Assembly: GCA_977017575.1 (NCBI GenBank)
Contig: CDRNVI010000018.1
Coordinates: forward strand, 124,001 to 188,000
DNA length: 64,000 bases
Reading direction: 5' to 3'
Origin: Paramoeba atlantica
Taxonomy: Eukaryota; Protista; Discosea
Part shown: positions 1,670 to 48,500 of the stretch, one piece after another
How positions within the stretch are numbered: position 1 is the stretch's first letter
How the letters are laid out: the number at the start of each line of letters is the position of its first letter
Translations under genes and position numbers: made by a program
Notes under the pieces: generated by a model
Database searches by the model: none
What the model saw: the letters and a program-made list of their open reading frames with translations, nothing else
Told to the model about the DNA's origin: nothing

Positions 1670-4579
1670 CTACATGTATATGAACGTCACTCGAAATTCC
1701 GACAAATGATCTGCAGGATTGAGCTTTGTCGAAACGTAATTCGCTTTGATGCAAAGGTGTCGTTCTTTCGCCCACTCCAAAACACTGCACAACTCTGGTG
1801 CAATCCCGTCTGATTTACAAATTTTTCTGTTGAATGCGGCCTTGCAGGAAGTGTTATCGATCCACAACTGAAGACACGTTTGTGGCTCAAATTTGTCCGC
1901 AAATTTTTCAAGTGCGAGTCGTACCGCTTGAGCTTCGGCCTTGTTGACTTCATATTCTGTCCCCGGCTCCCACGGACTTCCGACAATACATACCTCCCCA
2001 TTGTCGAGATATAAGATCGCCCCCCATCCCTTGGCTGACGCATCGGTATAAAGGTTATGACGCGGCGGTGATAACTCCGGATGCGGAGAGGGCTCAACGG
2101 GTACGTTTTCAAGCAGTTTGTTGCGCCATTCTCCCAGCTTAGAACGAATCTTATACGGAAGGTCCACGACTTGATTAGCCATATGCGGCACTCGGTTGAG
2201 CAAATTTATTCTGCGCTGACAGATTTTTAATACGAAATGATATTTGGGGATTATGAGTCCTAAGATTGCGGAGCAATACAAAAGGCGCCCCACCGCCGCC
2301 TCTAGCTCCACAAATGTCGGCTTCATAAATGAATCTTCGCGTAGTTTGAGCAACACTTTGGGCCCCAGGCTGACCCTATGCGTGCTGTGGTTGTACTGTG
2401 CCCCATTAAAAACATACTTTTTCATAGGCAACATACCGGAATCCTTGAATCCTGCGTTCACACCTTCCGCCCGGCGATCAACCCACGTCGTATAACGCAA
2501 CGCTTCGTGCGTCGCACCAGCAAAACGAACTCCATCGACATATACATCGATGTGGCCCTTATCAAAAGTGGCCGGCTTAGAACAATAATCACTTGATCCA
2601 GCGATAGTCCCCATAATGGAATGCATGATTTCAGGGGCACATCTGTGCCCCATTGGGAGAACGCACATCTCGTACACTTCTCCTGCTTCGTCCAAAAAAC
2701 GAAATTTCCGGCGAGATTTTTCTGGTATCGATATTTGGTAAAAGCCGCACACCAAATCTCTCTTCACTCCCGAACTTTCTTTTACGCGGTGCAAATATTT
2801 CGCGGGATGCATTAACGGAACGAAAGGTTCATAACTAGAAAGACGTGTGTTATCAGATTTGGTCCAGGAAATGAATCGCCTGCGTTGTCGCCCTTCATCA
2901 TCCGATTCTACCACCGTAAATGGAATAAGGTACTGCATTGAAGGTCTCTTAGCAACGTCCTCCGCCGTTAGTTTCTTAATGATATTATGCTTTTCAAGTA
3001 GTTGAAAGTCTGAGGAAGACAGTCCGCTTTTAACCGCAGGAGGTTCTTCTGGATGTACGGGCATCTTAAGCGCTTCTTGCCATACTTCTTGAAATCTCGT
3101 GTCAACAGCTGGGGACATCCATTTCCGGACCTTATTAACATCAAGTTTCGGAATATTCGGTTTGACATGCAACGGAATCGCGAAATCCTTTTCCTTAGCT
3201 AGCTTAGAGCTACGTCGTGTGCAAATTAACGAATGTCGCTTTAAATATGGAACTTGTTTATAACACTCCTGGATCATCTCTGGGGTCACAGCCCCGGAAG
3301 CAGTGCTGAAACTCTTTGGGTCCCCAAGGCTCGCGCGGTCGTCAATTGGTTTGCATTGTAGCGAAGAAGACTTTCCAGGTTCAAATGCTTTGTGAGGTAC
3401 TGAATCTCCGACAAGGTGAGGCGGCCCTCGACCACGTGTTGGAATAGATGTGTTATTGCCCCGCGTTTGATTGAGTGGGTACCAAACCCTCTTCCTAGAA
3501 TTTTTCTTATTTCCGCATCCATTTCCCGCACGGGAGTATGGCATATCTTCTGTTTTGGCGGAAGCCCCTCTATGTAGCGTGCTAGCTCTGGCGTCCCCGG
3601 ACCCGTTATGACGGCATGCATATACGGCCGGAAGGGGTTTAGGCGTGTTGATTTCGTCGCCCGACCCCAATAAATCACTATCTCGGTTGAGGATACCTTG
3701 AGAAACTTCTCCCTGCAGAGTTCGGCGACCTCTGTCCACCGCGCCGCCGCTTTCCAGCACAGCAGCACGGCCATGGTCTGTGAGACTGTTATCCTGCTGC
3801 ACAATTTCCGTAGCAGATACGGGGTCAGTGGCTCCATCTGACGTTGTGGCTCCAGCCCCCCCTGCGCTTGTAGTGCCTTCGAGTATAGCTTGAGAGGGGT
3901 GTTGTCCTCGTTTATGCATGTGTAAATGGTGTGTAGACTTCTTGTGTAGGCTAGCCGCGTCGTTACCGCAACGCTTAGGGAATCCAGAAACAATATTGCG
4001 TGCAGCGCAGTTGGACGTATGCTTCTTTTCTCGCAGAACTCGTTTAGTCGCATCCAAATACGTTCCCTTGTGGCCCACGTCGTTTCCGTCCACATCGGAT
4101 ATACTGCCCTCTGAAGAGCCGGCGCCAGCGCGTCGTTTGGATCCATACGGAGGAGTTGGCACGTCAAGTTCAACCTTCTTGTTTTCGCTAAGGGGCCTGA
4201 TAGGTCCGTTTGGTGTCCTGCGGGACGATTTATCCTCTTTTGAGTTCGACCCGTACCTGTAGTGTTTGTTTGACTCATTGTTTGAGTCACGAGTATTTGC
4301 TGCGCATTCCGCAGTGTGCTGACATATCGCACACCGTTCCATACATAACTTGGAGATGAACGTGTAAAATAGCCTGGTAAGTTCTCCCGCCTTTTGTATA
4401 AGGCAGGAGCACGAGTAGTTGTTTTCGGGGTGGGGAACGTTTCCTAGTGGATCGTTCGTCTTTCGGCACGAGTGTAGCTCACAGGTGTCTTCGTACCGCC
4501 ACTCGCCACCCCCCGGTGAAAATCCTTTAACCGTGGACAATTGGCCCGCAAGTGCCCAGGCATGCGACAGTTGAAGCAC
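1670..4579 (-). CDS. Pol (RT + RNase H) of B1, frame open across the YR gene
   Basis: RDLVCGFYQI, LPMGHRCAPE, YVDGV; RNase H LYTDAS..GWG, NKAEAQA, WIDNTS, NPADHL. Confidence 0.92.
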   Translation of the reverse strand: MLQLSHAWALAGQLSTVKGFSPGGGEWRYEDTCELHSCRKTNDPLGNVPHPENNYSCSCLIQKAGELTRLFYTFISKLCMERCAICQHTAECAANTRDSNNESNKHYRYGSNSKEDKSSRRTPNGPIRPLSENKKVELDVPTPPYGSKRRAGAGSSEGSISDVDGNDVGHKGTYLDATKRVLREKKHTSNCAARNIVSGFPKRCGNDAASLHKKSTHHLHMHKRGQHPSQAILEGTTSAGGAGATTSDGATDPVSATEIVQQDNSLTDHGRAAVLESGGAVDRGRRTLQGEVSQGILNRDSDLLGSGDEINTPKPLPAVYACRHNGSGDARASTLHRGASAKTEDMPYSRAGNGCGNKKNSRKRVWYPLNQTRGNNTSIPTRGRGPPHLVGDSVPHKAFEPGKSSSLQCKPIDDRASLGDPKSFSTASGAVTPEMIQECYKQVPYLKRHSLICTRRSSKLAKEKDFAIPLHVKPNIPKLDVNKVRKWMSPAVDTRFQEVWQEALKMPVHPEEPPAVKSGLSSSDFQLLEKHNIIKKLTAEDVAKRPSMQYLIPFTVVESDDEGRQRRRFISWTKSDNTRLSSYEPFVPLMHPAKYLHRVKESSGVKRDLVCGFYQISIPEKSRRKFRFLDEAGEVYEMCVLPMGHRCAPEIMHSIMGTIAGSSDYCSKPATFDKGHIDVYVDGVRFAGATHEALRYTTWVDRRAEGVNAGFKDSGMLPMKKYVFNGAQYNHSTHRVSLGPKVLLKLREDSFMKPTFVELEAAVGRLLYCSAILGLIIPKYHFVLKICQRRINLLNRVPHMANQVVDLPYKIRSKLGEWRNKLLENVPVEPSPHPELSPPRHNLYTDASAKGWGAILYLDNGEVCIVGSPWEPGTEYEVNKAEAQAVRLALEKFADKFEPQTCLQLWIDNTSCKAAFNRKICKSDGIAPELCSVLEWAKERHLCIKANYVSTKLNPADHLSEFRVTFIYM
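3286..4443 (-). CDS. Tyrosine recombinase of B1 (track ORF 3286-4332; frame open up to the gag stop)
   Basis: AARWTE (R), HSIKRGA (HxxR), KHLNLESLLRY (H...Y). Confidence 0.92.
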   Translation of the reverse strand, partial: ETFPTPKTTTRAPALYKRRENLPGYFTRSSPSYVWNGVRYVSTLRNAQQILVTQTMSQTNTTGTGRTQKRINRPAGHQTDLSGPLAKTRRLNLTCQLLRMDPNDALAPALQRAVYPMWTETTWATRERIWMRLNEFCEKRSIRPTALHAILFLDSLSVAVTTRLAYTRSLHTIYTCINEDNTPLKLYSKALQAQGGLEPQRQMEPLTPYLLRKLCSRITVSQTMAVLLCWKAAARWTEVAELCREKFLKVSSTEIVIYWGRATKSTRLNPFRPYMHAVITGPGTPELARYIEGLPPKQKICHTPVREMDAEIRKILGRGFGTHSIKRGAITHLFQHVVEGRLTLSEIQYLTKHLNLESLLRYNANQLTTARALGTQRVSALLPGL

Positions 4580-5068
4580 AGCGGAGGCTGGGTCGCACGT
4601 ACCCGACGAGACTGCTTTGAAGTTTCCTCTAGCATAATACGTCCATAGGTGTCGTCAGGGTTCTTCACCTGGTGAAGTCGCTGCTGTACTTTCTCAACTG
4701 GAGCGCCGGCCGCGGCCCAATAATGGTTTCTTAGCTCCTCTATAATGATCTTAGCTATGTTGTAGAAGTTTTCGTCTGTCCATTCTGCCAACTTGCGCGC
4801 CGCATAAATCCACTGAACGAGCATTTCGAATAAGCGTTCCCGAACAAGCGGAGGATTGAACCGTACGCCGAATTCTTTCGTATCGCGGAGCTCTCGCACC
4901 AGTTCCCGTGGCTTAAACTCATCTGGGGATTCTATCCATGGACCCCATGTTTTTGGTTCAATGGGAGAGAAGTTCTTGGGATCAGAGATGGTCAAACGGT
5001 CTACAGAAGGAAGATGCTCAACTCGCTCACCGCCTGGCATCCGAGCTTGTACTTTAGCAATCGCCAAT
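4444..5068 (-). CDS. Gag C-terminal half of B1 with CCHC knuckle
   Basis: CFNCRMPGHLRANC; FKPRELVRELR and IIEELRNHYWAAAG shared with the other gags. Confidence 0.9.
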
Positions 5069-7212: not shown

Positions 7213-7251
7213 CAACAAGGTACAGAAACTGTATCTTTATCGTTAAAGAAG
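7213..7251 (-). other. Full 39-nt SL relic between 29-bp direct repeats
   Basis: CTTCTTTAACGATAAAGATACAGTTTCTGTACCTTGTTG; repeats at 7184-7212 and 7252-7280; an AG (plus-strand 7281-7282) precedes the upstream repeat. Confidence 0.9.
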
Positions 7252-9969: not shown

Positions 9970-12927
9970 CTAGGGTTTTCCTTCAATATGACTGTCTAGC
10001 TTACCAATATGATGATGCTGATTATCGCTGTATTTGTCGATGTTGCCTTTATATTTCTCAACCTTCTCTCTCTCAATCTCCTTCCCGCGACTGACAGCAT
10101 CCGCCGGGTTCTCATCCGTGGATATGTACGCTGCCTTGACACAAATACCTTTGTCCTCTGTCAGTCGCAGGACTTCGCGCAATTCCATTGAAACCCCCTC
10201 TGACTTGGAGATCCTCCTGTTCAGTGCAGCCTGACAGGAGGTGTTGTCAACAAAAACATCCAAGCAGGTTCCACGGGGGCAATGCGCGGAAAACTTCTCG
10301 AGGGCTAAGCGGACTGCTGCAGCTTCCGCACGGTTCACCTCATACGAGGATGACTCAGGCCACGCCTCACCCGTAATCAAAACCTCTCCGCTGTCTAAAT
10401 ACATAATCGCTCCCCATCCTTTCACCGAGGCATCGGTGTAGAGACGATGCTTGTGTGGAACAACATCGGGATGGGGAGGTGGAGACCGTGGAACATTCTC
10501 CAGCAACTCGTTTCTCCATTCTGCTAGCATGGAGCGAGTGACGACAGGGAGTGCGACCGGACGGTCACATAACTTCGGGCAACGGTTCAACAAGTTGATA
10601 CGCCGTTGCGCCACCTTCAAAGCGAAATAAAACCGCGGCATATTGAGTCGGAGAACTGCGGAGCCATAAATGAGGCGCCCCACCACCGCCTCTAGGTCAA
10701 CAAAGGAAATGTTGAAGAAAGAGTCGGCTCGCAGTTTCCTGATCACTCGCGGTCCCAGGCAGACCGTATGCGCGTTATGGTCGAACGCCACCCCATTGAA
10801 CACGTACTGTGCTACAGGGGGCTGACCCCGATCTTTAAAAAGACCGTTCGCCTTGTCGCAACGCTCGTCAATGAACTGAGCGTACGTGGTGGCCTCGGAG
10901 TGGGTTCCTGCAAACCGAACTCCGTCAACATAAACGTCGATAGCGCCTCGGTGAAACGAGTAGCGCTGAGAACAAATCGACGCCTCGCCAGCAATCGCGG
11001 CGGTAACCGTGTGCATAACCTCCGGTGCACACCTATGGCCCATCGGGAGGACGTTCATCTCAAACACGTCTCCACTGTTCGTTCTAAGGCGGAATTTGGG
11101 CCGCGCCCTCTTTGGGATACCAATCTGGTAAAATCCGCACGTGAAGTCCCGCTTCACAGCCATCGGCTCGTGCGCCTTATGAAGATACTTGGAGGGATGA
11201 TATAATGGGACCTGTGGTTCATATGATTTTAATCTATCGTTATCGTCCCTTGTCCATGAAATAAATCTTCTGCGCTGATTGCCCTCATCATCGGTCTCCA
11301 CAACCGTGAAGGGAATCATGAACTGCATCGATGGGCGCTTTCTCAACTCCTGCGCCGGGACCTTGGAGATTATGCCTGCATCCTCCAACAATCGGACGTC
11401 CGCCTCAGGCAATGAACCTTTCACACTAGGTTCGGGGTACGGGGCTTTAGGTACCCATAATAATTCATCCACTACCTTGCGAAAACGAGTGGCAGCTGAC
11501 AGACTCATCCACTCCTTAACCTGATCCAAATGGATAACAGGTATCGACTTCTTAACGTGCAAAGGTAGGTGAGCGTCGTGTGCCTTGGCTAGCCGTGAAG
11601 AGCGGCGTGCACAAACAACGGAGTGCCTGCGAAGGTAAGGCACTTCCTCGAAGCACTTTGCCACGTGCTCCGAGGTTACAGCACTGGGAGACGTGCTGAG
11701 ACTCTCTGCGTCCCGAGAGCCCTTGCCGTTGTAATACTGCTTGCGTTGTAGCGCAACAGTGATTCGACGTTGAGGTGTTTCGTGAGGTTCTGGACGTCCT
11801 CCATCCTGAGATTCCCGAGGGAGATCTCGTGGAATAGGTAAGTAATTGCACCTCTTTTTATGGAATGTGTTCCATACCCCGGACCGAGAAGTTGATTCAT
11901 CCTGTGGTCCATCTCCCGGACCGTCGTGTAACACAGGCGCTGGCCTGGTCTCAAACTTCCCACAAACTGAGCCAGTTCGGGTGTCCCCGGTCCAGTCACT
12001 ATCGCGTAGAGGTACGGCCGGTAAGGATTCAGACGGGTTGTCTTGGTCCCCCTGCCCCAATAAATGATTACCTCGTGACTGGCCACACTCACGAACTGCT
12101 CCCGCCTCAGGTCGGCGGTCTCGGTCCATCTCGCAGCGGCTTTCCAACACAGGAGGCAACACATGCTCTCCTTTACGTCGAGATGACGTCTCAGCTTCTT
12201 TAGAAGAAGTGGCGTGATTGGTAGCATCTGCCGCGTGGGTTCTAGCCCCCCCTGCGCTTGCAGGGCCTTTACGTAGAGACTCAATGGGGTACCTTCGATT
12301 CCCATGAGCTCGAACAGAGTCCTCAATGCCCCTGCGTACCCCATGCGCGTCGAGGTAGCGAGAGGCAGAGTCTCCAGGAAGAGCACCGCGTTTGCAGGAT
12401 TCGCGGTGATTCCCTTCGCCTGGCAATACTCGCGCAGGCGGAACCACAGTCGCTCCCTTGTGGCCCACGTGGCCGTTGCCCACATGGGCTGGAGCGCCTC
12501 GTTCATCTGGGTGGCGCGCGGGTCCTCGGGGGGCATTCGAAGAATCGCCCTCAGCAACTCCTGGCGGCGTCCTCCTGGAGGCTGCGCGGCGTCGGCGGTT
12601 ACGACGGCAGCGGTTTTGGCGGCGGCGGTCTTGGCGGCGGTGTAAACGGGAACGGGAAGCCGGGGTAGAGGACGGATTGGGAGGGAGACGCTTCTGCGCC
12701 TTAGACGTAACGGGGAGAGAGGGCGGGGAGGAGGAGTAGTGCCACGCACGCGTGGCCGTCTTTCGCGCTGGCGGAGAGACGGGGAGGAAACGGGGGTAAG
12801 AATATCCACCCGTCGTCGCCTGGGACGACGGGCACGAGCAGTAATTGGGGTGGGGGGCATTTCCTAGTGGAAAGCCCGTGTTGCGCCGTAACGGTTGGCG
12901 CCGCCCACCACCCCGCCGCGAAAATCC
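9970..12927 (-). CDS. Pol (RT + RNase H) of A1; frame open from the GGATTTT site (track 9970-12483)
   Basis: KRDFTCGFYQI, LPMGHRCAPE, YVDGV, LYTDAS, NRAEAAA, FVDNTS, NPADAVSR; upstream frame checked by hand and stop-free. Confidence 0.92.
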   Translation of the reverse strand, partial: GFSRRGGGRRQPLRRNTGFPLGNAPHPNYCSCPSSQATTGGYSYPRFLPVSPPARKTATRAWHYSSSPPSLPVTSKAQKRLPPNPSSTPASRSRLHRRQDRRRQNRCRRNRRRRAASRRTPPGVAEGDSSNAPRGPARHPDERGAPAHVGNGHVGHKGATVVPPARVLPGEGNHRESCKRGALPGDSASRYLDAHGVRRGIEDSVRAHGNRRYPIESLRKGPASAGGARTHAADATNHATSSKEAETSSRRKGEHVLPPVLESRCEMDRDRRPEAGAVRECGQSRGNHLLGQGDQDNPSESLPAVPLRDSDWTGDTRTGSVCGKFETRPAPVLHDGPGDGPQDESTSRSGVWNTFHKKRCNYLPIPRDLPRESQDGGRPEPHETPQRRITVALQRKQYYNGKGSRDAESLSTSPSAVTSEHVAKCFEEVPYLRRHSVVCARRSSRLAKAHDAHLPLHVKKSIPVIHLDQVKEWMSLSAATRFRKVVDELLWVPKAPYPEPSVKGSLPEADVRLLEDAGIISKVPAQELRKRPSMQFMIPFTVVETDDEGNQRRRFISWTRDDNDRLKSYEPQVPLYHPSKYLHKAHEPMAVKRDFTCGFYQIGIPKRARPKFRLRTNSGDVFEMNVLPMGHRCAPEVMHTVTAAIAGEASICSQRYSFHRGAIDVYVDGVRFAGTHSEATTYAQFIDERCDKANGLFKDRGQPPVAQYVFNGVAFDHNAHTVCLGPRVIRKLRADSFFNISFVDLEAVVGRLIYGSAVLRLNMPRFYFALKVAQRRINLLNRCPKLCDRPVALPVVTRSMLAEWRNELLENVPRSPPPHPDVVPHKHRLYTDASVKGWGAIMYLDSGEVLITGEAWPESSSYEVNRAEAAAVRLALEKFSAHCPRGTCLDVFVDNTSCQAALNRRISKSEGVSMELREVLRLTEDKGICVKAAYISTDENPADAVSRGKEIEREKVEKYKGNIDKYSDNQHHHIGKLDSHIEGKP
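11676..12860 (-). CDS. Tyrosine recombinase of A1
   Basis: AARWTE, HSIKRGA, KHLNVESLLRY. Confidence 0.93.
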   Translation of the reverse strand: MPPTPITARARRPRRRRVDILTPVSSPSLRQRERRPRVRGTTPPPRPLSPLRLRRRSVSLPIRPLPRLPVPVYTAAKTAAAKTAAVVTADAAQPPGGRRQELLRAILRMPPEDPRATQMNEALQPMWATATWATRERLWFRLREYCQAKGITANPANAVLFLETLPLATSTRMGYAGALRTLFELMGIEGTPLSLYVKALQAQGGLEPTRQMLPITPLLLKKLRRHLDVKESMCCLLCWKAAARWTETADLRREQFVSVASHEVIIYWGRGTKTTRLNPYRPYLYAIVTGPGTPELAQFVGSLRPGQRLCYTTVREMDHRMNQLLGPGYGTHSIKRGAITYLFHEISLGNLRMEDVQNLTKHLNVESLLRYNASSITTARALGTQRVSARLPVL

Positions 12928-16251: not shown

Positions 16252-16331
16252 GACTACTCGCTTGGAAGTATCATTCTTCTGGCTGTCACGTTCGTTCAGA
16301 GATCACTTGTCAGACTGTCACGTCCGCCGAG

Positions 16332-17666: not shown

Positions 17667-20498
17667 CTATCGTGCAAAATTCCTACTGACCGGGTCTGCC
17701 GGGTTGTCTTTCGTTGAGACGTAATCGGCCTTGATGCAGACGCCCCGGTCCTTCGCCCATTGCAAAACCTTACCGAGTTGGTTTGATATTCCTCCTGATT
17801 TTGAAATTTTTCTGTTTAGCGCTGCTTGGCACGAAGTGTTATCTACCCATAATTGCAAGCACGTGCCCCGGGTGAAATGTCTCTCCAACTTCTGGAGGGA
17901 AAGTCTAACGGCTGTCGCTTCTGCCCTATTTACTTCGTATTGCCAAGAGGATTTCCATTGCCCCCCCACGATGATCACTTCGCCTGAATCGAGGTAGAGG
18001 ATGCCTCCCCATCCTTTCGCTGAGGCGTCTGTATACAAATTATGCTCCCGGGGAGCTATTTCAGGATGCGGGAGAGGTTCAACCGGTATGTTCCTAACAA
18101 GTTCATTTCGCCACTGCCGTAGCATATCTCGTATTTTGTTCGGTAGATCCACTACCTCTTCGGCCATCTCCGGCATGCGGTTTAACAAGTTTATGCGGCG
18201 TTGACATATTTTAAGGGCGAAATAGTATTTTGGAATAATAATTCCCACTACTGAGGAGCAGTACAGGAGGCGCCCCACCGTCGCCTCGAGCTCCAGAAAT
18301 GTAGTACGTGTAAATTGATCCTTCTCCAATTTTGCGACAACTTTGGGTCCCAGGTTGACCTTGTGTACGCGATGGTCGTACCTAACACCGTTAAATACGT
18401 ACTCCTTCATGGGAAGGAGTCCCGAGTCTTTAAAGCGCGCTCCTGTCTCTTGCGCGCGGTCATCAACCCATTTCTTGTACTGACAGGCCTGCTGATCTGT
18501 ACCAGCAAACCGTACACCGTCCACGTAGATATCTAATGCGCCTTGTGAAAAGGTTGATTTACAGTATCCCTTCATACCGGCGATCGTAGCCGTGACTGTG
18601 TGCATCAATTCCGGGGCGCACCGATGCCCCATCGGCAAAACGCGCATTTCATACAACACCCCCGTGTCTGAATAAAACCGAAATTTTTGACGACATTCCT
18701 GCGGAATCGAGATTTGATAAAAACCACATACTAGGTCCCTCTTCAGACCTGACTGCGCCTTAACTCTATGCAAATATTTAGATGGATGTAGTAGGGGTAC
18801 CTGGGGAACGTATTCACTCAGCCGAGCGTTGTCAGAACGCGTCCAAGAAATAAATCGTCGACGTTGCTTGCCCTCATCGTCCGTTTCAATTACCGTGAAA
18901 GGAACCAGAAATTGCATTGAGGGACGTTTGTTTTCTTCCTTTTCGGATACCGCAGAAATAATACCATGCTTAAGTAAGAGCTCGTGATCTGTATGGCTCA
19001 AACTTCCTTTCATACGAGGAGATGTTTCAGGGCAAGATGGCATGCGTAATAATTCTTTCCAAACCTGTTCGAATCTTGAGGCGGTAGCTGTAGACATCCA
19101 GCTTCGAATTTTATTCATGTCAATAGTTGGAACTCCCGGCTTGACGTGTAACGGAATATGAAAGTCCTTCGGCTTTGCTAACTTAGAACTCCGGCGTGCA
19201 CAAACTAATGTATGTCGTTTTAAGTAAGGGACTTCTTTATAACACTCTTGCATTTCTACTGGAGAAAGGGTCCGGGCAATCGCGCTGACACTCGGTGCGT
19301 GCCCAGTGCTCTTGCTGTCGTCAACTGCTGAGCATTGTATCGGAGAAGACTCTCTAAGCTCAGATGCTTTGTGAGGATTTGCACCTCCGACAAGTTGAGG
19401 TGGCCGTTGGCGACTTCCTGAAGTAGATACGTTACAGCCCCCCGTTTTATAGAGTGGGTGCCATACCCGTTTCCTAGCACCCTTCTTATTTCGTGGTCCA
19501 TCTCTCGAACTGTGGTCCTGCACAGTTTTTGGTTTTTCGGAAGGCGTCTCAAGTAATTCGCTATTTGCTCTGTCCCCGGTCCTGATATTATGGCGTGCAT
19601 GTATGGGCGGTATGGATTGAGACGTGTTGTCTTTGTGCTTCTTCCCCAATAAATCACGATTTCCTGCTCGGCAATGCTCAGAAATTGGTCGGCCTGTAGC
19701 TCGGCGACTTCCGTCCAGCGCGCTGCAGCCTTCCAGCAAATCAAGATTGCGATGGCCTGTGATGGCGTGACGCTTTTGTAAAGTTTCGTTAGCAGATACT
19801 GTGTTAGAGGTTGCATCTGTCGATGAGGTTCGAGAGCTCCCTGCGCTTGCAGCGCCTTTGAGTATAATTTCAGAGGAATTGTGTTTTCGTTCATTAGAGT
19901 GTACATCGTATGCAACCCGCGGGCGTACGCTAATCTTGTCGACATTGCCAATTTTTGTGCATCGAGGAATAAAACGGCGTTGAGAGCGGAAGGCTGTATC
20001 ATTTTTACTCGACAAAAGTCCTCCATTCGACTCCATATTGCCTCTCTCGACCTCCACGTAGTGTGAGCCCACATGGGACGAATTGCGTCTCGTAACACCG
20101 GAGCGTTCGCGTCCTCGGTCTGGATCCCTAACATTTTGTTTGTCAACATAACGCGTCTCACTCTTGCTGTCATCGGCAACTCGGCGCGGTTCGAACTTCT
20201 CTTCACACATATATGATCCGTCAAGCTTGCGTTTTGACTTGTCTGTGTCACGAGTAACGGCCTCCTGGCCCTCTTCTGATTTCCGTCGGTGCTCACATAT
20301 CGAGCACCGTTCCATACAAACTTTATGCGCGAAGCGCACAAGTATCCTGGCAATTTCGCTCGCTGCCTCTTCAAGGCTCGAGCACGAGTAGGAATTTTTG
20401 GGGTGGGGGACAATCCCTATTGGATCGTCCGTCTTTCGCCGCGACGGAACGTTGTCTGCGTCTGTGCAGCGCCACTCGCCACCCCCCGGGAGAAAACC
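17667..20498 (-). CDS. Pol (RT + RNase H) of B2 (track 17667-20339; frame open to 20549)
   Basis: RDLVCGFYQI, YVDGV, LYTDAS, WVDNTS, NPADPVSR. Confidence 0.92.
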   Translation of the reverse strand, partial: GFLPGGGEWRCTDADNVPSRRKTDDPIGIVPHPKNSYSCSSLEEAASEIARILVRFAHKVCMERCSICEHRRKSEEGQEAVTRDTDKSKRKLDGSYMCEEKFEPRRVADDSKSETRYVDKQNVRDPDRGRERSGVTRRNSSHVGSHYVEVERGNMESNGGLLSSKNDTAFRSQRRFIPRCTKIGNVDKISVRPRVAYDVHSNERKHNSSEIILKGAASAGSSRTSSTDATSNTVSANETLQKRHAITGHRNLDLLEGCSALDGSRRATGRPISEHCRAGNRDLLGKKHKDNTSQSIPPIHARHNIRTGDRANSELLETPSEKPKTVQDHSSRDGPRNKKGARKRVWHPLYKTGGCNVSTSGSRQRPPQLVGGANPHKASELRESSPIQCSAVDDSKSTGHAPSVSAIARTLSPVEMQECYKEVPYLKRHTLVCARRSSKLAKPKDFHIPLHVKPGVPTIDMNKIRSWMSTATASRFEQVWKELLRMPSCPETSPRMKGSLSHTDHELLLKHGIISAVSEKEENKRPSMQFLVPFTVIETDDEGKQRRRFISWTRSDNARLSEYVPQVPLLHPSKYLHRVKAQSGLKRDLVCGFYQISIPQECRQKFRFYSDTGVLYEMRVLPMGHRCAPELMHTVTATIAGMKGYCKSTFSQGALDIYVDGVRFAGTDQQACQYKKWVDDRAQETGARFKDSGLLPMKEYVFNGVRYDHRVHKVNLGPKVVAKLEKDQFTRTTFLELEATVGRLLYCSSVVGIIIPKYYFALKICQRRINLLNRMPEMAEEVVDLPNKIRDMLRQWRNELVRNIPVEPLPHPEIAPREHNLYTDASAKGWGGILYLDSGEVIIVGGQWKSSWQYEVNRAEATAVRLSLQKLERHFTRGTCLQLWVDNTSCQAALNRKISKSGGISNQLGKVLQWAKDRGVCIKADYVSTKDNPADPVSRNFAR
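19256..20413 (-). CDS. Tyrosine recombinase of B2
   Basis: AARWTE, HSIKRGA, KHLSLESLLRY. Confidence 0.93.
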   Translation of the reverse strand: MSPTPKIPTRARALKRQRAKLPGYLCASRIKFVWNGARYVSTDGNQKRARRPLLVTQTSQNASLTDHICVKRSSNRAELPMTARVRRVMLTNKMLGIQTEDANAPVLRDAIRPMWAHTTWRSREAIWSRMEDFCRVKMIQPSALNAVLFLDAQKLAMSTRLAYARGLHTMYTLMNENTIPLKLYSKALQAQGALEPHRQMQPLTQYLLTKLYKSVTPSQAIAILICWKAAARWTEVAELQADQFLSIAEQEIVIYWGRSTKTTRLNPYRPYMHAIISGPGTEQIANYLRRLPKNQKLCRTTVREMDHEIRRVLGNGYGTHSIKRGAVTYLLQEVANGHLNLSEVQILTKHLSLESLLRYNAQQLTTARALGTHRVSARLPGPFLQ

Positions 20499-26002: not shown

Positions 26003-28826
26003 TCAATGCTTTTTCTCTTCACACATTCTGCTATATGGATCTGCAGGATTTTCTTTTGATGCAATATATTCTGCCTGTACTGCAATTCCTTGACGCTTCA
26101 AATATTTCAACAAACCATACAACTCCGAAGTAATGCCATCAGATCCTGACACTTTCCTATTGATCGCTGCTAAACAGGATGTATTGTCAACAAATAAATC
26201 TACGCATGTATCTCGCTGAAAGTGATGCCCGTACTTCTCAAACGCCAAACGTACTGCCCGAGCTTCGGCCCGATTCACTTCGTACTTGAAACCCTCCGGC
26301 CAGGAGGCTCCGGTACATAAAACTTTCCCATAGTCGAGGTAAAGCACCGCCCCCCACCCGGTGGACGACGCATCGGTAAATAGAACGTGCTGATGTGGTA
26401 CTGTATCAGGATGTCGGACCGGGTCCACTGGAGAACAATAGATCAAGGAATCGCGCCACTCGGTCAACTTCACTCGCACTCGTAATGGTAAAGGCACGAC
26501 AGTATCCAATAGACAAGGATCGCGATTTAAATGATTGATTCGTCGTCGGACAATTTTCAAGAATAGATGATATTGGGGAATCGGTATGCCCATGATTGCC
26601 GAAGCAAAAATGAGCCTCCCAACACCGGCCTCGAGCCCAGAGTATGTGGTATGCATGTAGTTATCATTCTGAAGTCTTCGCGTTATCTTGGGTCCCAATG
26701 CAACTTTCCCTGATCGGTGGTGATAATTGACTCCATTGAATGTGTAGTTCTGCAAAGGTGGCACCCCAACCTCCTTAAAACGGGCGTTAACGTGCTGCGC
26801 CCGTCGATCTATAAACGCGGCATATTCCTGTGTATTTTTGTCACTAGAAGCGTAACGAATGCCGTCGATATACACATCCAGACCATTGTGGGCAAACGCC
26901 GATTTCTTATTACAGTAAGCTGGATCTCCCGCTATTGTCGCGGTTAACGAGTGCATCAACTCAGGGGCACACCGGTGTCCCATCGGCATCACATTCATTT
27001 CATATACTTGCCCACTGCGGTCCAAAAATCTGAACTTCGCCCTACTTTCGGATGGAATCGCGACCTGAAAAAAAACCGCATGCCAGATCACGCTTTACCG
27101 CCGAGTCCTGTCGGGCTCGATGGAGATAATAGGCTGCATGTTTTACCGGTACTTGTGGCTCATAAACCTCCTTAATCCGCGCGTTGTCATCCCGGGTCCA
27201 TGCTATAAACCGCCGGCGTTCTGTCTCGTCGTCAGCAGGCTCGACAACCGTGAATGGTATCACCCATTCCATCGTTGGGCGACGCTGTGCTTCCTCTGTG
27301 TTGACGTGTGACACAAATCCTGCGTCCACCAGCTGGGTTATATCCTTGTCGTGCAATAATGATTTACACGCCGGTGTTTTACTCGGAGTGTTTGGTAACC
27401 GAGTTAAAATTTTCCATGTCTCCTCGAAGCGCTCACGTGCTTTTTGGTTCATTAACAGTTTAAGTCGCTCGACCTCCATCTGTGGAATATTTAGCTTCAC
27501 ATGCAAGGGCAACTTCCAATCCCCCTCCTGTGCCACCTTAGAGGTCCTCCTCGATCTCGTTATTGTGTGCTTTACCTTCTCGTGCGGTATATCTTCCAAA
27601 AACTTGCTAAAAATAACCTCGGGGCTCACAGTATCTGTAGTTTTGACGTGGCCTTCTGGGTACCAAGCGCCAAGGCGGTAGTGACTGGGTCCGCATTGTA
27701 CCGCAGGAGGGACTCCAGGGATTGGTGCTTTGCGAGATGTTGCACCTCGTCGAGTCGGATTGTCCCGTTGGCTACCTCTGTGAAAAGGTGTGTGATTGCG
27801 CCCCTCTTCGCCGAATGCGTGCCGTACCCCGCCCCTAACCGCTCTCGAACGCGGGCGTCGACCTCCGTCACCGTTGATCTGGACATTGGCTGGTGCTGTC
27901 CCAACTGACTGATGTACGCGTGAAGGGTAGCGGTTCCGGGGCCCTCGATCACCGTGTACATGGAGGGTCGGTATGGGTTGAACCTGGAAGTCTTTGTTTT
28001 TCTCCCCCACCAAATCACTATTCTTAACGGCGTTAATTCGCGAAATTGTTCCTTCGTCAAACTTGCAGTCTCGGTCCACCGGCTGGCTGCTTTCCAACAA
28101 AGCATCAAGGTATGTCTTTCGCTGCATGGGAGATGGTGCCATAACTGGTTCAGTAACGTGGGTGTCAAAGGAGCCATCTGGCGTACTGGCTCCGTGGCCC
28201 CTTCTGCCATCAGTGATTTTACATAAAATTTTAGAGGATTCGTTTCCAGGCCTGCGAGGCTTAATATAGAAGCGAGGCTGCGTGCGTACGTGAGCTTGCC
28301 CTGTACTCTGATGTTCATCGTCGCCACAAAAGTTACTGCATGTATCGCGGTAATTTCGATTGCCTTCCAATTGCAAAAGGCGGTTAGTCTTTCCCACAAC
28401 CTCGCCCTGCTTTTCCAGGTTGCGTTGCTCCACATCTCGGACATCCCATCTAGTGCTACACGGACCTCTTCCGTCACGTGAGTAATTCCCATTAATAACT
28501 TCATCAACTTCATCCTTACTGGCGTAGTATCCACACTTAACATTCCTCCGTACAAACTCCCAGATCTTATCAATCTCCCTTTCAAGTCGCCTGCACTTGG
28601 TACATTCACCGTCTGCTTTTCCGTTTGTAACCTTCCCTCCATCCTCCTTTTCTTTGCAACTTGCATATTCGACACACTTTTCCCCTTGAATATAATAACA
28701 CTGGCCGTTAGGGTGGGGCTTTTTCATAAGCTCTTGCTGCTCCCGGCAGGGCCAGCCACCCGCGAACGAAAATCCCGCTTTGGACAGTTTTTCCATACAT
28801 GATCGGGTGAACGGCACCCAAAACAC
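26003..28826 (-). pseudogene. Pol of family C with one frameshift in an A8 run (27068-27075)
   Basis: KRDLACGFF|QVAIP broken by one extra base; YIDGI, LFTDAS, FVDNTS, NPADPYSR. A homopolymer sequencing error is possible. Confidence 0.85.
27626..28723 (-). CDS. Tyrosine recombinase of family C (track 27626-28675)
   Basis: ASRWTE, HSAKRGA, KHQSLESLLRY. Confidence 0.9.
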   Translation of the reverse strand, partial: KSPTLTASVIIFKGKSVSNMQVAKKRRMEGRLQTEKQTVNVPSAGDLKGRLIRSGSLYGGMLSVDTTPVRMKLMKLLMGITHVTEEVRVALDGMSEMWSNATWKSRARLWERLTAFCNWKAIEITAIHAVTFVATMNIRVQGKLTYARSLASILSLAGLETNPLKFYVKSLMAEGATEPVRQMAPLTPTLLNQLWHHLPCSERHTLMLCWKAASRWTETASLTKEQFRELTPLRIVIWWGRKTKTSRFNPYRPSMYTVIEGPGTATLHAYISQLGQHQPMSRSTVTEVDARVRERLGAGYGTHSAKRGAITHLFTEVANGTIRLDEVQHLAKHQSLESLLRYNADPVTTALALGTQKATSKLQIL

Positions 28827-33189: not shown

Positions 33190-36126
33190 TTAGGGCTTTC
33201 TCTGAATATGACTGCCTACCTTATTAATGTCTCTCTCGATCTTACCTTCGTATCTCTCCACCTTCTCCATCTCAATCTCCTTCCCGCGACTGACAGCATC
33301 CGCCGGGTTCTCATCCGTGGATATATACGCTGCCTTGACACAAATACCTTTCTCCTCTGTCAGTCGCAGGACTTCGCGCAATTCCATTGAAACCCCCTCT
33401 GACTTGGAGATCCTCCTGTTCAGTGCAGCCTGACAGGAGGTGTTGTCAACAAAAACATCCAAGCAGGTTCCACGGGGGCAATGCGCGGAAAACTTCTCGA
33501 GGGCTAAGCGGACTGCTGCAGCTTCCGCACGATTTACCTCATACGAGGAGGACTCAGGCCACGCCTCTCCCGTAATCAAAACCTCTCCGCTGTCTAAATA
33601 CATAATCGCTCCCCACCCTTTCACCGAGGCATCGGTGTAGAGACGATGCTTGTGTGGAACAACATCGGGATGGGGAGGTGGAGACCGTGGAACATTCTCC
33701 AACAACTCGTTTCTCCACTCTGCTAGCATGGAGCGAGTGACGACAGGGAGTGCGACCGGACGGTCACATAACTTCGGGCAACGGTTCAACAAGTTGATAC
33801 GCCGTTGCGCCACCTTCAAAGCGAAATAAAATCGCGGCATATTGAGTCGGAGAACTGCGGAGCCATAAATGAGGCGCCCCACCACCGCCTCTAGGTCAAC
33901 AAAGGAAATGTTGAAGAAAGAGTCGGCTCGCAGTTTCCTGATCACTCGCGGCCCCAGGCAGACCGTATGCGCGTTATGGTCGAACGCCACCCCATTGAAC
34001 ACGTACTGTGCTACAGGGGGCTGACCCCGATCTTTGAAAAGACCGTTCGCTTTGTCGCAACGCTCGTCAATGAACTGAGCGTACGTGGTGGCCTCGGAGT
34101 CGGTTCCTGCAAACCGAACTCCGTCAACATAAACGTCGATAGCGCCTCGGTGAAACGAGTAGCGCTGAGAACAAATCGACGCCTCGCCAGCAATCGCGGC
34201 GGTAACCGTGTGCATAACCTCCGGTGCACACCTATGGCCCATCGGGAGGACGTTCATCTCATACACGTCTCCACTGGTCGTTCTAAGGCGGAATTTGGGC
34301 CGCGCCCTCTTCGGGATACCAATCTGGTAAAACCCGCATGTGAAGTCCCGCTTCACAGCCATCGGCTCGTGCGCCTTATGAAGATACTTGGAGGGATGAT
34401 ATAATGGGACCTTTGGTTCATATGATTTTAATCTATCGTTATCGTCCCTTGTCCATGAAATAAATCTTCTGCGCTGATTGCCCTCATCATCGGTCTCCAC
34501 AACCGTGAAGGGAATCATGAACTGCATCGATGGGCGCTTTCTCAACTCCTGCGCCGGGACCTTAGAGATTATGCCTGCGTCCTCCAACAATCGGACGTCC
34601 GCCTCAGGCAATGAACCTTTCACACTAGGTTCGGGGTACGGGGCTTTAGGTACCCATAATAATTCATCCACTACCTTGCGAAAACGAGTGGCAGCTGACA
34701 GACTCATCCACTCCTTAACCTGATCCAAATGGATAACAGGTATCGACTTCTTAACGTGCAAAGGTAGGTGTGCGTCGTGTGCCTTGGCTAGCCGTGAAGA
34801 GCGGCGTGCACAAACAACGGAGTGCCTGCGAAGGTAAGGCACTTCCTCGAAGCACTTTGCCACGTGCTCCGAGGTTACAGCACTGGGAGACGTGCTGAGA
34901 CTCTCTGCGTCCCGAGAGCCCTTGCCGTTGTAATACTGCTTGCGTTGTAGCGCAACAGTGATTCGACGTTGAGGTGTTTCGTGAGGTTCTGGACGTCCTC
35001 CATCCTGAGATTCCCGAGGGAGATCTCGTGGAATAGGTAAGTAATTGCACCTCTTTTTATGGAATGTGTTCCATACCCCGGACCGAGAAGTTGATTCATC
35101 CTGTGGTCCATCTCCCGGACCGTCGTGTAACACAGGCGCTGGCCTGGTCTCAAACTTCCCACAAACTGAGCCAGTTCGGGTGTCCCCGGTCCAGTCACTA
35201 TCGCGTAGAGGTACGGCCGGTAAGGATTCAGACGGGTTGTCTTGGTCCCCCTGCCCCAATAGATGATTACCTCGTGACTGGCCACACTCACGAACTGCTC
35301 CCGCCTCAGGTCGGCGGTCTCGGTCCATCTCGCAGCGGCTTTCCAACACAGGAGGCAACACATGCTCTCCTTTACGTCGAGATGACGTCTCAGCTTCTTT
35401 AGAAGAAGTGGCGTGATTGGTAGCATCTGCCGCGTGGGTTCTAGCCCCCCCTGCGCCTGCAGGGCCTTTACGTAGAGACTCAATGGGGTACCTTCGATTC
35501 CCATGAGCTCGAACAGAGTCCTCAATGCCCCTGCGTACCCCATGCGCGTCGAGGTAGCGAGAGGCAGAGTCTCCAGGAAGAGCACCGCGTTTGCAGGATT
35601 CGCGGTGATTCCCTTCGCCTGGCAATACTCGCGCAGGCGGAACCACAGTCGCTCCCTTGTGGCCCACGTGGCCGTTGCCCACATGGGCTGGAGCGCCTCG
35701 CCCAACTGGGTGGCGCGAGGATCGTCGGCGGGCATCCTCAGAATGGCCTCGAGCAGCTGCTTGCGGTGTTTTCCTGGCGGCTGTAGAGCGTCGGCGGTTA
35801 CGACGGCGGCGGTTTGGGCGGCGGCGGTTTGGGCGGCGGCGTAAACGGGAACAGGGAACCGAGGTAGAGGTCGGGCCGGGAGCGAGACACTTCTGCGCTT
35901 CAGACGTAACGGGGAGAGAGGGCGGGGAGGAGGAGTAGTGCCACGCACGCGTGGCCGTCTTTCGCGCTGGCGGAGGGACGGAGAGGAAGCAGGGGTAAGA
36001 ATATCCACCCGTCGTCGCCTGGGACGACGGGCACGAGCAGTAGTTGGGGTGGGGGGCATTTCCTAGTGGAAAGCCCGTGTTGCGCCGTAACGGTTGGCGC
36101 CGCCCACCACCCCGCCGCGAAAATCC
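33190..36126 (-). CDS. Pol (RT + RNase H) of A2 (track 33190-35682; frame open from the slippery site)
   Basis: Same motifs as A1; upstream frame checked stop-free. Confidence 0.92.
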   Translation of the reverse strand, partial: GFSRRGGGRRQPLRRNTGFPLGNAPHPNYCSCPSSQATTGGYSYPCFLSVPPPARKTATRAWHYSSSPPSLPVTSEAQKCLAPGPTSTSVPCSRLRRRPNRRRPNRRRRNRRRSTAARKTPQAAARGHSEDARRRSSRHPVGRGAPAHVGNGHVGHKGATVVPPARVLPGEGNHRESCKRGALPGDSASRYLDAHGVRRGIEDSVRAHGNRRYPIESLRKGPAGAGGARTHAADATNHATSSKEAETSSRRKGEHVLPPVLESRCEMDRDRRPEAGAVRECGQSRGNHLLGQGDQDNPSESLPAVPLRDSDWTGDTRTGSVCGKFETRPAPVLHDGPGDGPQDESTSRSGVWNTFHKKRCNYLPIPRDLPRESQDGGRPEPHETPQRRITVALQRKQYYNGKGSRDAESLSTSPSAVTSEHVAKCFEEVPYLRRHSVVCARRSSRLAKAHDAHLPLHVKKSIPVIHLDQVKEWMSLSAATRFRKVVDELLWVPKAPYPEPSVKGSLPEADVRLLEDAGIISKVPAQELRKRPSMQFMIPFTVVETDDEGNQRRRFISWTRDDNDRLKSYEPKVPLYHPSKYLHKAHEPMAVKRDFTCGFYQIGIPKRARPKFRLRTTSGDVYEMNVLPMGHRCAPEVMHTVTAAIAGEASICSQRYSFHRGAIDVYVDGVRFAGTDSEATTYAQFIDERCDKANGLFKDRGQPPVAQYVFNGVAFDHNAHTVCLGPRVIRKLRADSFFNISFVDLEAVVGRLIYGSAVLRLNMPRFYFALKVAQRRINLLNRCPKLCDRPVALPVVTRSMLAEWRNELLENVPRSPPPHPDVVPHKHRLYTDASVKGWGAIMYLDSGEVLITGEAWPESSSYEVNRAEAAAVRLALEKFSAHCPRGTCLDVFVDNTSCQAALNRRISKSEGVSMELREVLRLTEEKGICVKAAYISTDENPADAVSRGKEIEMEKVERYEGKIERDINKVGSHIQRKP
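34875..36059 (-). CDS. Tyrosine recombinase of A2
   Basis: AARWTE, HSIKRGA, KHLNVESLLRY. Confidence 0.93.
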   Translation of the reverse strand: MPPTPTTARARRPRRRRVDILTPASSPSLRQRERRPRVRGTTPPPRPLSPLRLKRRSVSLPARPLPRFPVPVYAAAQTAAAQTAAVVTADALQPPGKHRKQLLEAILRMPADDPRATQLGEALQPMWATATWATRERLWFRLREYCQAKGITANPANAVLFLETLPLATSTRMGYAGALRTLFELMGIEGTPLSLYVKALQAQGGLEPTRQMLPITPLLLKKLRRHLDVKESMCCLLCWKAAARWTETADLRREQFVSVASHEVIIYWGRGTKTTRLNPYRPYLYAIVTGPGTPELAQFVGSLRPGQRLCYTTVREMDHRMNQLLGPGYGTHSIKRGAITYLFHEISLGNLRMEDVQNLTKHLNVESLLRYNASSITTARALGTQRVSARLPVL

Positions 36127-43834: not shown

Positions 43835-44146
43835 TTTTTTTTTTTTTTTTTTTGGTGCGCGTCTAAAGCGGCAAAAACATTTTTTTTTTTTTTTTTGCTG
43901 TGAGAAGTGGACATGACAATAATCGTGAAGTATAAAAAGCATATCAAGCACTACTACTTTCAAGCCTTCAACATTAGAAGGACGCACGATCTGTTTGCTG
44001 CAACTCGCAGCCTTTGACTACTCACCTTCACACTTCTTTCCAACTTCCCTAATACTGCCGCTCTGCACGTCTTCTTGGAGAGCCTCCATTTTTATCCTCT
44101 CAGTCTTAAAAAGCGTAAGGAGAAATTGAACCTGGTGGATCGACAG

Positions 44147-45539: not shown

Positions 45540-48500
45540 TTAGGGTTTTCTCTGAATATGACTGTCTACATCACTAATGTCTCTCTCGATCTTACCTTCA
45601 TATCTCTTGACCTTCTCCATCTCAATATCCTTCCCGCGACTGACAGCATCCGCCGGGTTCTCATCCGTGGATATATACGCTGCCTTGACACAAATACCTT
45701 TCTCCTCTGTCAGTCGCAGGACTTCGCGCAATTCCATTGAAACCCCCTCTGACTTGGAGATCCTCCTGTTCAGTGCAGCCTGACAGGAGGTGTTATCAAC
45801 AAAAACATCCAAGCAGGTTCCACGGGGGCAATGCGCGGAAAACTTCTCGAGGGCTAAGCGGACTGCTGCAGCTTCCGCACGATTCACCTCATACGAGGAT
45901 GACTCAGGCCACGCCTCTCCCGTAATCAAAACCTCTCCGCTGTCTAAATACATAATCGCTCCCCACCCTTTCACCGAGGCATCGGTGTAGAGACGATGCT
46001 TGTGTGGAACAACATCGGGATGGGGAGGTGGAGACCGTGGAACATTCTCCAACAACTCGTTTCTCCACTCTGCTAGCATGGAGCGAGTGACGACAGGGAG
46101 TGCGACCGGACGGTCACATAACTTCGGGCAACGGTTCAACAAGTTGATACGCCGTTGCGCCACCTTCAAAGCGAAATAAAACCGCGGCATATTGAGTCGG
46201 AGAACTGCGGAGCCATAAATGAGGCGCCCCACCACCGCCTCTAGGTCAACAAAGGAAATGTTGAAGAAAGAGTCGGCTCGCAGTTTCCTGATCACTCGCG
46301 GTCCCAGGCAGACCGTATGCGCGTTATGGTCGAACGCCACCCCATTGAAGACGTACCGTGCTACAGGGGGCTGACCCCGATCTTTGAAAAGACCGTTCGC
46401 CTTGTCGCAACGCTCGTCAATGAACTGAGCGTACGTGGTGGCCTCGGAGTCGGTTCCTGCAAACCGAACTCCGTCAACATAAACGTCGATAGCGCCTCGG
46501 TGAAACGAGTAGCGCTGAGAACAAATCGACGCCTCGCCAGCAATCGCGGCGGTAACCGTGTGCATAACCTCCGGTGCACACCTATGGCCCATCGGGAGGA
46601 CGTTCATCTCATACACGTCTCCACTGTTCGTTCTAAGGCGGAATTTGGGCCGCGCCCTCTTCGGGATACCAATCTGGTAAAACCCGCATGTGAAGTCCCG
46701 CTTCACAGCCATCGGCTCGTGCGCCTTATGAAGATACTTGGAGGGATGATATAATGGGACCTTTGGTTCATATGATTTTAATCTATCGTTATCGTCCCTT
46801 GTCCATGAAATAAATCTTCTGCGCTGATTGCCCTCATCATCGGTCTCCACAACCGTGAAGGGAATCATGAACTGCACCGATGGGCGCTTTCTCAACTCCT
46901 GCGCCGGGACCTTAGAGATTATGCCTGCGTCCTCCAACAATCGGACGTCCGCCTCAGGCAACGAACCTTTCACACTAGGTTCGGGGTACGGGGCTTTAGG
47001 TACCCATAATAGTTCATCCACTACCTTGCGAAAACGAGTGGCAGCTGACATACTCATCCACTCCTTAACCTGATCCAAATGGATAACAGGTATCGACTTC
47101 TTAACGTGCAAAGGTAGGTGAGCGTCGTGTGCCTTGGCTAGCCGTGAAGAGCGGCGTGCACAAACAACGGAGTGCCTGCGAAGGTAAGGCACTTCCTCGA
47201 AGCACTTTGCCACGTGCTCCGAGGTTACAGCACTGGGAGACGTGCTGAGACTCTCTGCGTCCCGAGAGCCCTTGCCGTTGTAATACTGCTTGCGTTGTAG
47301 CGCAGCAGTGATTCGACGTTGAGGTGTTTCGTGAGGTTCTGGACGTCCTCCATCCTGAGATTCCCGAGGGAGATCTCGTGAAACAGGCAAGTTATTGCAC
47401 CTCTTTTTATGGAATGCGTTCCATACCCCGGACCGAGAAGCTGATTCATCCTGTGGTCCATCTCCCGGACCGTCGTGTAACACAGGCGTTGGCCTGGTCT
47501 CAAACTTCCCACAAACTGAGCCAGTTCGGGTGTCCCCGGTCCAGTCACTATCGCGTAGAGGTACGGCCGGTAAGGATTCAGACGGGTTGTCTTGGTCCCC
47601 CTGCCCCAATAAATGACTACCTCGTGACTGGCCACACTCACAAACTGCTCCCGCCTCAGGTCGGCGGTCTCGGTCCATCTCGCAGCGGCTTTCCAACACA
47701 GGAGGCAACACATGCTCTCCTTTACGTCGAGGTGACGTCTCAGCTTCTTTAGAAGAAGTGGCGTGATTGGTAGCATCTGCCGCGTGGGTTCTAGCCCCCC
47801 CTGCGCCTGCAGGGCCTTTACGTAGAGACTCAATGGGGTACCTTCGATTCCCATGAGCTCGAACAGAGTCCTCAATGCCCCTGCGTACCCCATGCGCGTC
47901 GAGGTAGCGAGAGGCAGAGTCTCTAGGAAGAGCACCGCGTTTGCAGGATTCGCGGTGATTCCCTTCGCCTGGCAATACTCGCGCAGGCGGAACCACAATC
48001 GCTCCCTTGTGGCCCACGTGGCCGTCGCCCACATGGGCTGGAGCGCCTCGTTCATCTGGGTGGCGCGCGGGTCCTCGGGGGGCATTCGAAGAATCGCCCT
48101 CAGCAACTCCTGGCGGCGTCTCCCTGGCGGCTGTGCGGCGTCGGCGGTTACGACGGCGGCGGTTTTGGCGGCGGCCGTCTTGGCGGCGGCGTAAACGGGA
48201 ACGGGAAGCCGGGGTAGAGGACGGATTGGGAGGGAGACGCTTCTGCGCCTTAGACGTAACGGGGAGAGAGGGCGGGGAGGAGGAGTAGTACCACGCACGC
48301 GTGGCCGTCTTTCGCGCTGGCGGAGAGACGGGGAGGAAACAGGGGTAAGAATATCCACCCGTCGTCGCCTGGGACGACGGGCACGAGCAGTAATTGGGGT
48401 GGGGGGCATTTCCTAGTGGAAAGCCCGTGTTGCGCCGTAACGGTTGGCGCCGCCCACCACCCCGCCTCGAAAATCCTGGGCTGGGGTTCGTTGGCTGCGG

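Follow-up and report, generated by a model that had tools for sequence, protein, structure and literature searches.

How does a retrotransposon translate a tyrosine recombinase (YR) that lies in frame behind a single gag stop and is overlapped by pol along its whole length? The question is raised by a 64,000-nucleotide (nt) stretch of Paramoeba atlantica DNA (contig CDRNVI010000018.1, positions 124,001 to 188,000), called the window below. The window is a nest of retroelements with a 17-bp tandem array at its end, and its minus strand carries six copies of an element with three open reading frames (ORFs) in four families: A (three copies), B1, B2 and C. The ORF order is gag with a CCHC knuckle, YR, and then reverse transcriptase (RT) and RNase H (RH), with YR and pol overlapping. 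YR identities between families are ~46-64%, and the four families form one clade (support 100/99). Translation of YR likely begins at the gag stop or runs through it, and does not begin at a downstream AUG, because the YR frame is under selection and lacks stops ahead of its first AUG.

The ORFs of the B1 copy and the terminal repeats of an intact copy are as follows.

4444..5068, minus strand: 3' part of family B1 gag, with a capsid-like region and a CCHC zinc knuckle (zf-CCHC, E = 0.0015)
3286..4443, minus strand: family B1 YR ORF, 385 codons in the gag frame, catalytic R235, K264, H323, R327, H353 and Y362
1670..4654, minus strand: family B1 pol ORF in the -1 frame, a long linker over the whole YR followed by RT and RNase H
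37469-37647 (A1), 31351-31587 (B1), 31176-31354 (A2) and 30915-31151 (B2): split direct repeats of family A copy 2

Copy 2 of family A has intact gag, YR and pol. The 5' part of the B1 gag is cut off by a family A terminal repeat at 5069-5296, and the profile matches of the B1 pol are weak (RT_RNaseH, E = 0.0026; RVT_1, E = 0.076). Split direct repeats in the arrangement A1...B1-A2-B2 were seen for family A only; the B1, B2 and C copies are interrupted by other insertions. The gag-YR-RT/RH order and split direct repeats are those described for VIPER and TATE elements (accessible portions of PMC12278014 and PMC6681497). ORF order, YR catalytic set and fold, and the family A repeats place the element among VIPER-type YR retrotransposons (order DIRS). 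Its YR motifs match those of the Trypanosoma cruzi and Crithidia fasciculata VIPERs by eye. Of 20 clusters of relatives looked up, two were named as Papus ankaliazontas and one as Diplonema papillatum, and DNA of related loci was absent from the JGI metagenomes and IMG/VR.

The YR domain is assigned as a Cre-like tyrosine recombinase with the full R-K-H-R-H-Y set. Among 101 aligned relatives the catalytic residues are retained in 99 (R235), 98 (K264), 95 (H323), 66 (R327), 97 (H353) and 96 (Y362), and PF00589 was found in 21. The structure model (pLDDT 84) matches Cre with E = 1.4e-6; a PDB sequence search returned weak integrase matches only. In the model, residues 1-74 are disordered, the fold begins at about residue 81, and a helix at 84-97 precedes M100 and M117.

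Related elements in Diplonema papillatum (P0142, P0158 and P0159) have gene models with ~125 Met-free residues before the YR core. Diplonema models that join gag, YR and RT were left out of the count as probably spliced predictions.

The cassette around the gag stop

Re-reading of the minus strand reproduced all four stop contexts quoted in the first-pass annotation: TAG GAA ACG in B1 (4446-4438), TAG GAA ATG in A (at 12866, 36065 and 48415), TAG GGA TTG in B2 (at 20419) and TGA AAA AGC in C (at 28726). The frame, which that annotation described as open from the stop into YR, is open to the YR end in all six copies (365-395 codons). Two trivial accounts of the stop were rejected. Illumina contigs of runs X1 and X2 span the B1 TAG with no change listed at 4444-4446, which confirms the TAG against sequencing error. 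A reassigned stop codon does not agree with ORFs of ~1000 codons that contain neither TAG nor TGA, nor with the use of all three stop codons at the ends of long ORFs. The Illumina contigs also hold two more families with the same layout, B3 (TAG GAA GTG) and B4 (TAG GAA ATG; a net difference of 6 nt from B1). B3 is in phase in run X3 (118/118 nt ungapped) and carries 2 extra nt in the loop in runs X1 and X2. The latter version is read as a decayed copy, since the extra 2 nt would break pol too and the run X3 version is in phase.

In-phase heptamers (GGATTTT or GGTTTTC, with GGA or GGT as variants of XXX) end 72, 72, 54 and 42 nt before the stop in the four families of the window, which bears out the slip site proposed 42-72 nt upstream. 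The parts of the cassette are listed for B1, followed by the positions of the other copies.

4519..4525, minus strand: slippery heptamer G GAU UUU, in phase, predicted -1 frameshift into pol
4506..4512, minus strand: 5' strand of helix 1, GGGGTGG, with an invariant GGGTGG that begins 7 nt past the heptamer in every copy
4499..4505, minus strand: 5' strand of helix 2, CGAGTGG (B), TGGGCGG (A) or CTGGCC (C)
4444..4446, minus strand: gag stop TAG, a single stop in the loop closed by the two helices
4438..4440, minus strand: codon 2 after the stop, ACG; ATG in A and B4, TTG in B2, GTG in B3
4427..4435, minus strand: block holding the 3' strand of helix 1, invariant CCCCACCC, set 8 nt behind the stop, or 5 nt in family C
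4412..4418, minus strand: 3' strand of helix 2, CTACTCG (B), CTGCTCG (A) or GGCCAG (C)
12835..12927, minus strand: cassette of family A copy 1, stop 12864-12866
36034..36126, minus strand: cassette of family A copy 2, stop 36063-36065
48384..48476, minus strand: cassette of family A copy 3, stop 48413-48415
20385..20498, minus strand: cassette of family B2, heptamer GGTTTTC, stop 20417-20419
28701..28775, minus strand: cassette of family C, stop TGA 28724-28726, YR-frame ATG at 28666

Alignment of the six junctions gives three conserved blocks, which are the heptamer, GGGTGG and CCCCACCC. The last two pair as helix 1, in which 6 of 7 pairs never vary and covariation is thus absent. Helix 2 is retained through differing sequences in A, B and C by compensatory changes. 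The strand order is pseudoknot-like, with the stop within the long middle loop. Shuffling controls for the named pairs were borderline (17/500 for cells paired, 73/500 for covarying pairs), with family C one codon out of register. The helix score was equalled by 0, 2, 34 and 2 of 300 shuffled 3' strands under helix rules set after the motifs had been seen. Minimum-free-energy folding of the cassette gave no significant z scores (-1.5, -1.3, -1.5 and +1.2). We hold the two-helix pairing across the stop with moderate confidence. Its placement fits that of a -1 frameshift stimulator, and the conserved PHP/PTP peptides encoded here are attributed to this RNA element. The anatomy of -1 frameshifting is present, with an in-phase heptamer, a helix 6-7 nt later and a long open -1 ORF that has no start of its own, and a -1 frameshift likely yields Gag-Pol.

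The YR frame ahead of its first AUG

Pol is read in the -1 frame across the entire YR and is entered upstream of the gag stop. A non-triplet indel would also break pol, so the phase between gag and YR is inherited and locked. The first-pass annotation had proposed this phase as a test with a 1 in 3 chance for each independent family; the proposal was rejected because the families are one clade and pol fixes the phase. Its extension to further families did find B3, B4 and all five VIPER families read in phase, a result that the pol lock makes uninformative. With the phase locked by pol, a useful test has to ask whether ribosomes already translate the YR frame upstream of its first AUG.

The VIPER junctions were read by eye from parts 1-3 of the 6 parts of Additional file 10 of PMC6681497, which provided Bodo saltans, three C. 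fasciculata families and two T. cruzi copies. In all five families gag ends in TGA followed by A with YR in frame, and an in-phase heptamer (GGGAAAC, AAAAAAC or AAAAAAA) lies 21-42 nt upstream of the stop. The first YR AUG is codon 1 in T. cruzi, codons 8, 36 and 52 in C. fasciculata and codon 122 in B. saltans, and this range leaves no common AUG. The codon-36 AUG stands behind the stretch that matches the first helix of the fold (84-97 in the model).

In the window the first YR-frame ATG is codon 56 in B1 (4278), codon 2 in A, codon 82 in B2 and codon 20 in C (the next is codon 28). The earlier statement that B1, B2 and C have no nearby ATG is thus right for B1 and B2 and wrong for C, in which a further ATG overlaps the gag stop in the pol frame. 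A conserved internal start at M100 or M117 was rejected because neither is conserved, and the Met that precedes the conserved Trp occurs in only 39 of the 101 aligned relatives.

Openness of the YR frame ahead of the last usable AUG exceeds chance. The YR frame has no stop in 55 (B1), 81 (B2) and 73 (C) codons, and the third frame has 1, 6 and 9 stops over the same stretches. A synonymous-codon null that holds the pol protein fixed gives P0 values of 0.082, 0.090 and 0.097, with a product of 7e-4 for families that are related. The comparison of B1 with B2 was made over codons 14-42 after the stop, which lie past the RNA helices and upstream of any AUG in both. Changes fall at pol positions 1/2/3 in 16/6/10 of 29 codons, compared with 168/96/329 of 528 in the pol-only RT/RH reference (Fisher p = 0.006), and the wobble follows the YR frame. 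The three A copies vary at 50 spacer sites, of which 27 are silent in the YR frame (30% expected; p = 4e-4) and 9 are silent in pol. Family A has its AUG at codon 2, so the A result shows only translation that starts in the stop region.

Possible routes past the gag stop

We propose a three-way scheme in which most ribosomes that translate gag would terminate at the single stop to give Gag, some would slip -1 at the heptamer to give Gag-Pol, and a few would decode the stop and continue into YR, with a Gag-YR fusion as the product. The pseudoknot-like pairing, with its 3' strands just behind the stop, would stimulate the frameshift. Such a fusion would bring the recombinase into the particle, much as integrase is carried in as part of Gag-Pol in long terminal repeat (LTR) elements. 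For the first-pass proposal of Gag, Gag-Pol and Gag-YR from one cassette, the selection before the first AUG supports a YR start at or through the stop; readthrough is not distinguished by these data from reinitiation or splicing.

Chances are about even, in our judgment, that the gag stop is read through to a Gag-YR fusion. Readthrough is favored by the lack of a common AUG, the disordered linker ahead of the fold, the apparent fusion of YR to Gag in TATE elements and, weakly, the identity of the stop. The gag stop is TAG-G in five families (A and B1-B4), TGA-A in six (C and the five published VIPERs) and TAA in none of the 11, and TAA closes 9 of the 31 long ORFs of the window. For ~7 lineages the chance of this absence is ~0.09 by hand estimate, so it is suggestive only.

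Several findings weigh against readthrough. The stop and its context are not uniform between the five TAG-G and six TGA-A families, and neither is the leaky context UGA-C. The sequence 3' of the stop has no conserved significant structure (z = -1.2, -1.3, -2.2 and +2.1). An AUG lies upstream of the fold in all four families of the window (codon 56 in B1, 2 in A, 82 in B2 and 20 in C). Codon 2 is start-competent in 5/5 A/B-type families and T. cruzi has TGA ATG, both of which suit reinitiation. The host appears to trans-splice these RNAs, and TAG|G itself looks like an acceptor. A similar gag-UGA junction in Tca2 gave no readthrough in a reporter (accessible portion of PMC2194720). By end coordinate, 11 of 15 VIPER entries in the coordinate table of PMC6681497 are out of phase, 8 of which, from B. 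saltans (3), T. theileri (2), L. pyrrhocoris (2) and C. mellificae (1), are known by coordinates alone. The three out-of-phase entries with readable sequence are in fact in phase. The tables were rejected as a phase test because many lengths are not multiples of three and all three entries that could be read contradict them; the table-based count of 8/10 TATE elements in phase was likewise overturned by the Leishmania braziliensis sequence.

Codon 2 is the evidence for termination followed by reinitiation, in which ribosomes would restart at an AUG or near-cognate codon just past the gag stop and make free YR from the same RNA. Codon 2 is ATG in A and B4, ACG in B1, TTG in B2 and GTG in B3, two further relatives (P0002 and P0023) are called from a start at this position, and the T. 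cruzi VIPER reads TGA ATG. Reinitiation also accounts for the spacer selection as well as readthrough does. However, ACG, TTG and GTG are each one step from ATG with a final G that pol fixes, so the pattern is partly automatic. No AUG occurs within 19 codons in family C, in B. saltans or in two of the C. fasciculata families, and 7 of 11 families would need non-AUG restarts. We consider reinitiation unlikely.

A second alternative is a dedicated YR mRNA, made by spliced-leader (SL) trans-splicing with TAG|G at the stop, or a site close by, as acceptor; its translation would start at the next AUG. Three copies of a 39-41-nt sequence, which we take to resemble a kinetoplastid SL, stand at the 5' ends of retroelement ORFs; Rfam returned nothing relevant to the window sequences, this one included.

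7213..7251, minus strand: SL-like sequence on the 5' untranslated region of a B-type gag, acceptor TTAG|GGAC (7281/7280)
33088-33122, minus strand: SL-like copy at the 5' end of a retroelement ORF
52647-52687, plus strand: SL-like copy at the 5' end of a retroelement ORF

The copy at 7213 is preceded by 30 nt duplicated from the native acceptor region, which places the gag splice site at TTAG|GGAC, and it is likely a cDNA fossil of trans-splicing. The three copies, one of them on a gag, make trans-splicing by the host likely. The host is presumably a kinetoplastid-like euglenozoan. The sole visible gag acceptor has no strong pyrimidine tract, so a missing tract at the stop excludes little, and in A and B4 an AUG lies 3 nt past TAG|G. 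On the other side, none of the three fossils joins YR, albeit in a small sample, and the stop of the six TGA families offers no AG. Such an mRNA would not predict selection on the B1 and B2 YR frames upstream of their first AUG, or the absence of stops in that stretch. In one C. fasciculata family a start at the first AUG would remove N-terminal helices. We regard a dedicated mRNA as unlikely, slightly more so than reinitiation.

A double frameshift would dispense with a leaky stop altogether. Ribosomes that slip -1 would cross the stop while in the pol frame, and some of them would shift +1 back into the YR frame to give Gag-YR. The invariant CCCCACCC run behind the stop could serve such a return; however, helix 1 accounts for the run, which is missing from the published VIPER junctions read, and no precedent was found in the literature searched. 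This route is very improbable.

If readthrough is the route, the scheme may extend beyond the window. The tentative generalization, which we think somewhat more apt to fail than to hold, is that all VIPERs, among them the T. cruzi copies that look active, make three proteins from one RNA through a branch point of <120 nt, where frameshifting and readthrough are coupled by a structure that encloses the stop. By the common view, kinetoplastids produce almost all of their proteins from separate trans-spliced mRNAs. If true of all VIPERs, the scheme would be the first one for translation in YR retrotransposons and would place programmed frameshifting and readthrough in the kinetoplastid cytoplasm. 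The cassette supplies exact sites (heptamer, helices, stop and codon 2) for tests of frameshifting and stop bypass. The belief that the dual arrangement is undescribed for YR retrotransposons agrees with the literature searched, in which neither this scheme nor the expression of overlapping YR-retrotransposon ORFs is addressed and which does not include most subscription papers; the original VIPER description and the reviews of Poulter and Goodwin, also outside the search, may discuss it.

Other features of the window concern copy history and neighboring elements. Two family A gag copies share a premature TAA at 24322-24324 and 49256-49258 (minus strand), where another copy has TAC (Tyr); the shared TAA suggests that a gag-defective family A lineage was amplified or duplicated. 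The family C pol is split into two frames at a T run (~27070-27080, minus strand) by decay or homopolymer error. In the pol linker (pol frame, 4300-4443, minus strand), Cys/His motifs CSC...CMERCxICxH common to B1 and B2 may form a metal-binding module. Non-LTR elements at 52689-56534 (plus strand), 40597-44017 (minus strand) and 15409-17318 (minus strand) have an RT and, by eye, apparent C-terminal restriction-like endonuclease motifs (CRE/SLACS-like), and several are inserted into YR elements. From 62056 to 64000, the window end, lie 114 copies of the 17-mer GATCAAGTTTTTTGTAA (99% matches), possibly a non-canonical telomeric repeat or a satellite.

Comparison with known systems

The published VIPERs are the closest match. 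Shared features are the gag-YR-RT/RH order, pol over YR, the split repeats A1...B1-A2-B2, the CCHC box and the YR motifs (accessible portions of PMC6681497 and PMC12278014), and at the junction the in-phase heptamer, the one stop and YR in frame (PMC6681497, sequences by eye). VIPER sequences are published for T. cruzi and Crithidia with detection of Gag peptides (PMC6681497), and the papers annotate three ORFs and, in the portions accessible, propose no translation mechanism (PMC6681497; PMC12278014). The families of the window organism differ in having TAG-G (5/6) and the GGGTGG/CCACCC two-helix element, whereas the published VIPERs have TGA-A and T. cruzi has, by eye, a long hairpin whose loop contains the stop.

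Further details of these junctions were noted by eye. The T. cruzi hairpin has a 10-bp G+C-rich stem, which begins 6 nt past A AAA AAC and closes around the gag TGA, and B. saltans has a hairpin directly behind its TGA. In one C. fasciculata copy the gag frame is broken by one base at a T run, which lies upstream of the zinc knuckle.

TATE elements of L. braziliensis and B. saltans have the same ORF order and repeats, and in the sequences available this sister clade apparently makes YR attached to Gag by other means. In L. braziliensis, by eye, the heptamer A AAA AAC directly precedes the gag stop, and ORF2, which carries YR, follows it in the -1 frame; the gag frame runs on for ~39 codons past that stop before it closes. 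Two B. saltans copies are a single ORF.

Murine leukemia virus (MuLV) reads through a UAG that has a pseudoknot 8 nt 3' of the stop. The first-pass annotation invoked the gammaretroviral context for UAG-G; the likeness consists of UAG followed by G and an in-frame enzyme downstream. The analogy is not supported. Only the +4 G matches; UAG-G occurs in 5/6 families of the window organism and 0/5 published VIPER families, and the G is also fixed by a pol-frame codon. Six of 11 families have TGA followed by A. When A, B1 and B2 are folded from the stop, positions +9 to +30 stay unpaired, and the C-run there pairs upstream of the stop. With its 5' strands upstream of the stop and nothing folded at +9 to +30, the two-helix element does not read as a MuLV-type signal. 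The proposed structure encloses the stop, the downstream enzyme is YR, and pol would be reached by frameshift. A stimulator that encloses the stop is already opened by a ribosome that has arrived there, so a readthrough signal would have to differ from that of MuLV.

Among LTR elements, Tca2, Tj1/Tosmo and Skipper also have a single stop between gag and an enzyme ORF, according to the portions of their descriptions available. Their events lie in series along one polyprotein, whereas those of the VIPER-like cassette would be alternative branches 21-72 nt apart that lead into two overlapping ORFs. Skipper reportedly combines a UGA stop with a frameshift, which would make it an earlier case of one RNA that carries two recoding events. 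By these comparisons the cassette is best described as a putative variant of known recoding types that is family-wide and not peculiar to the window.

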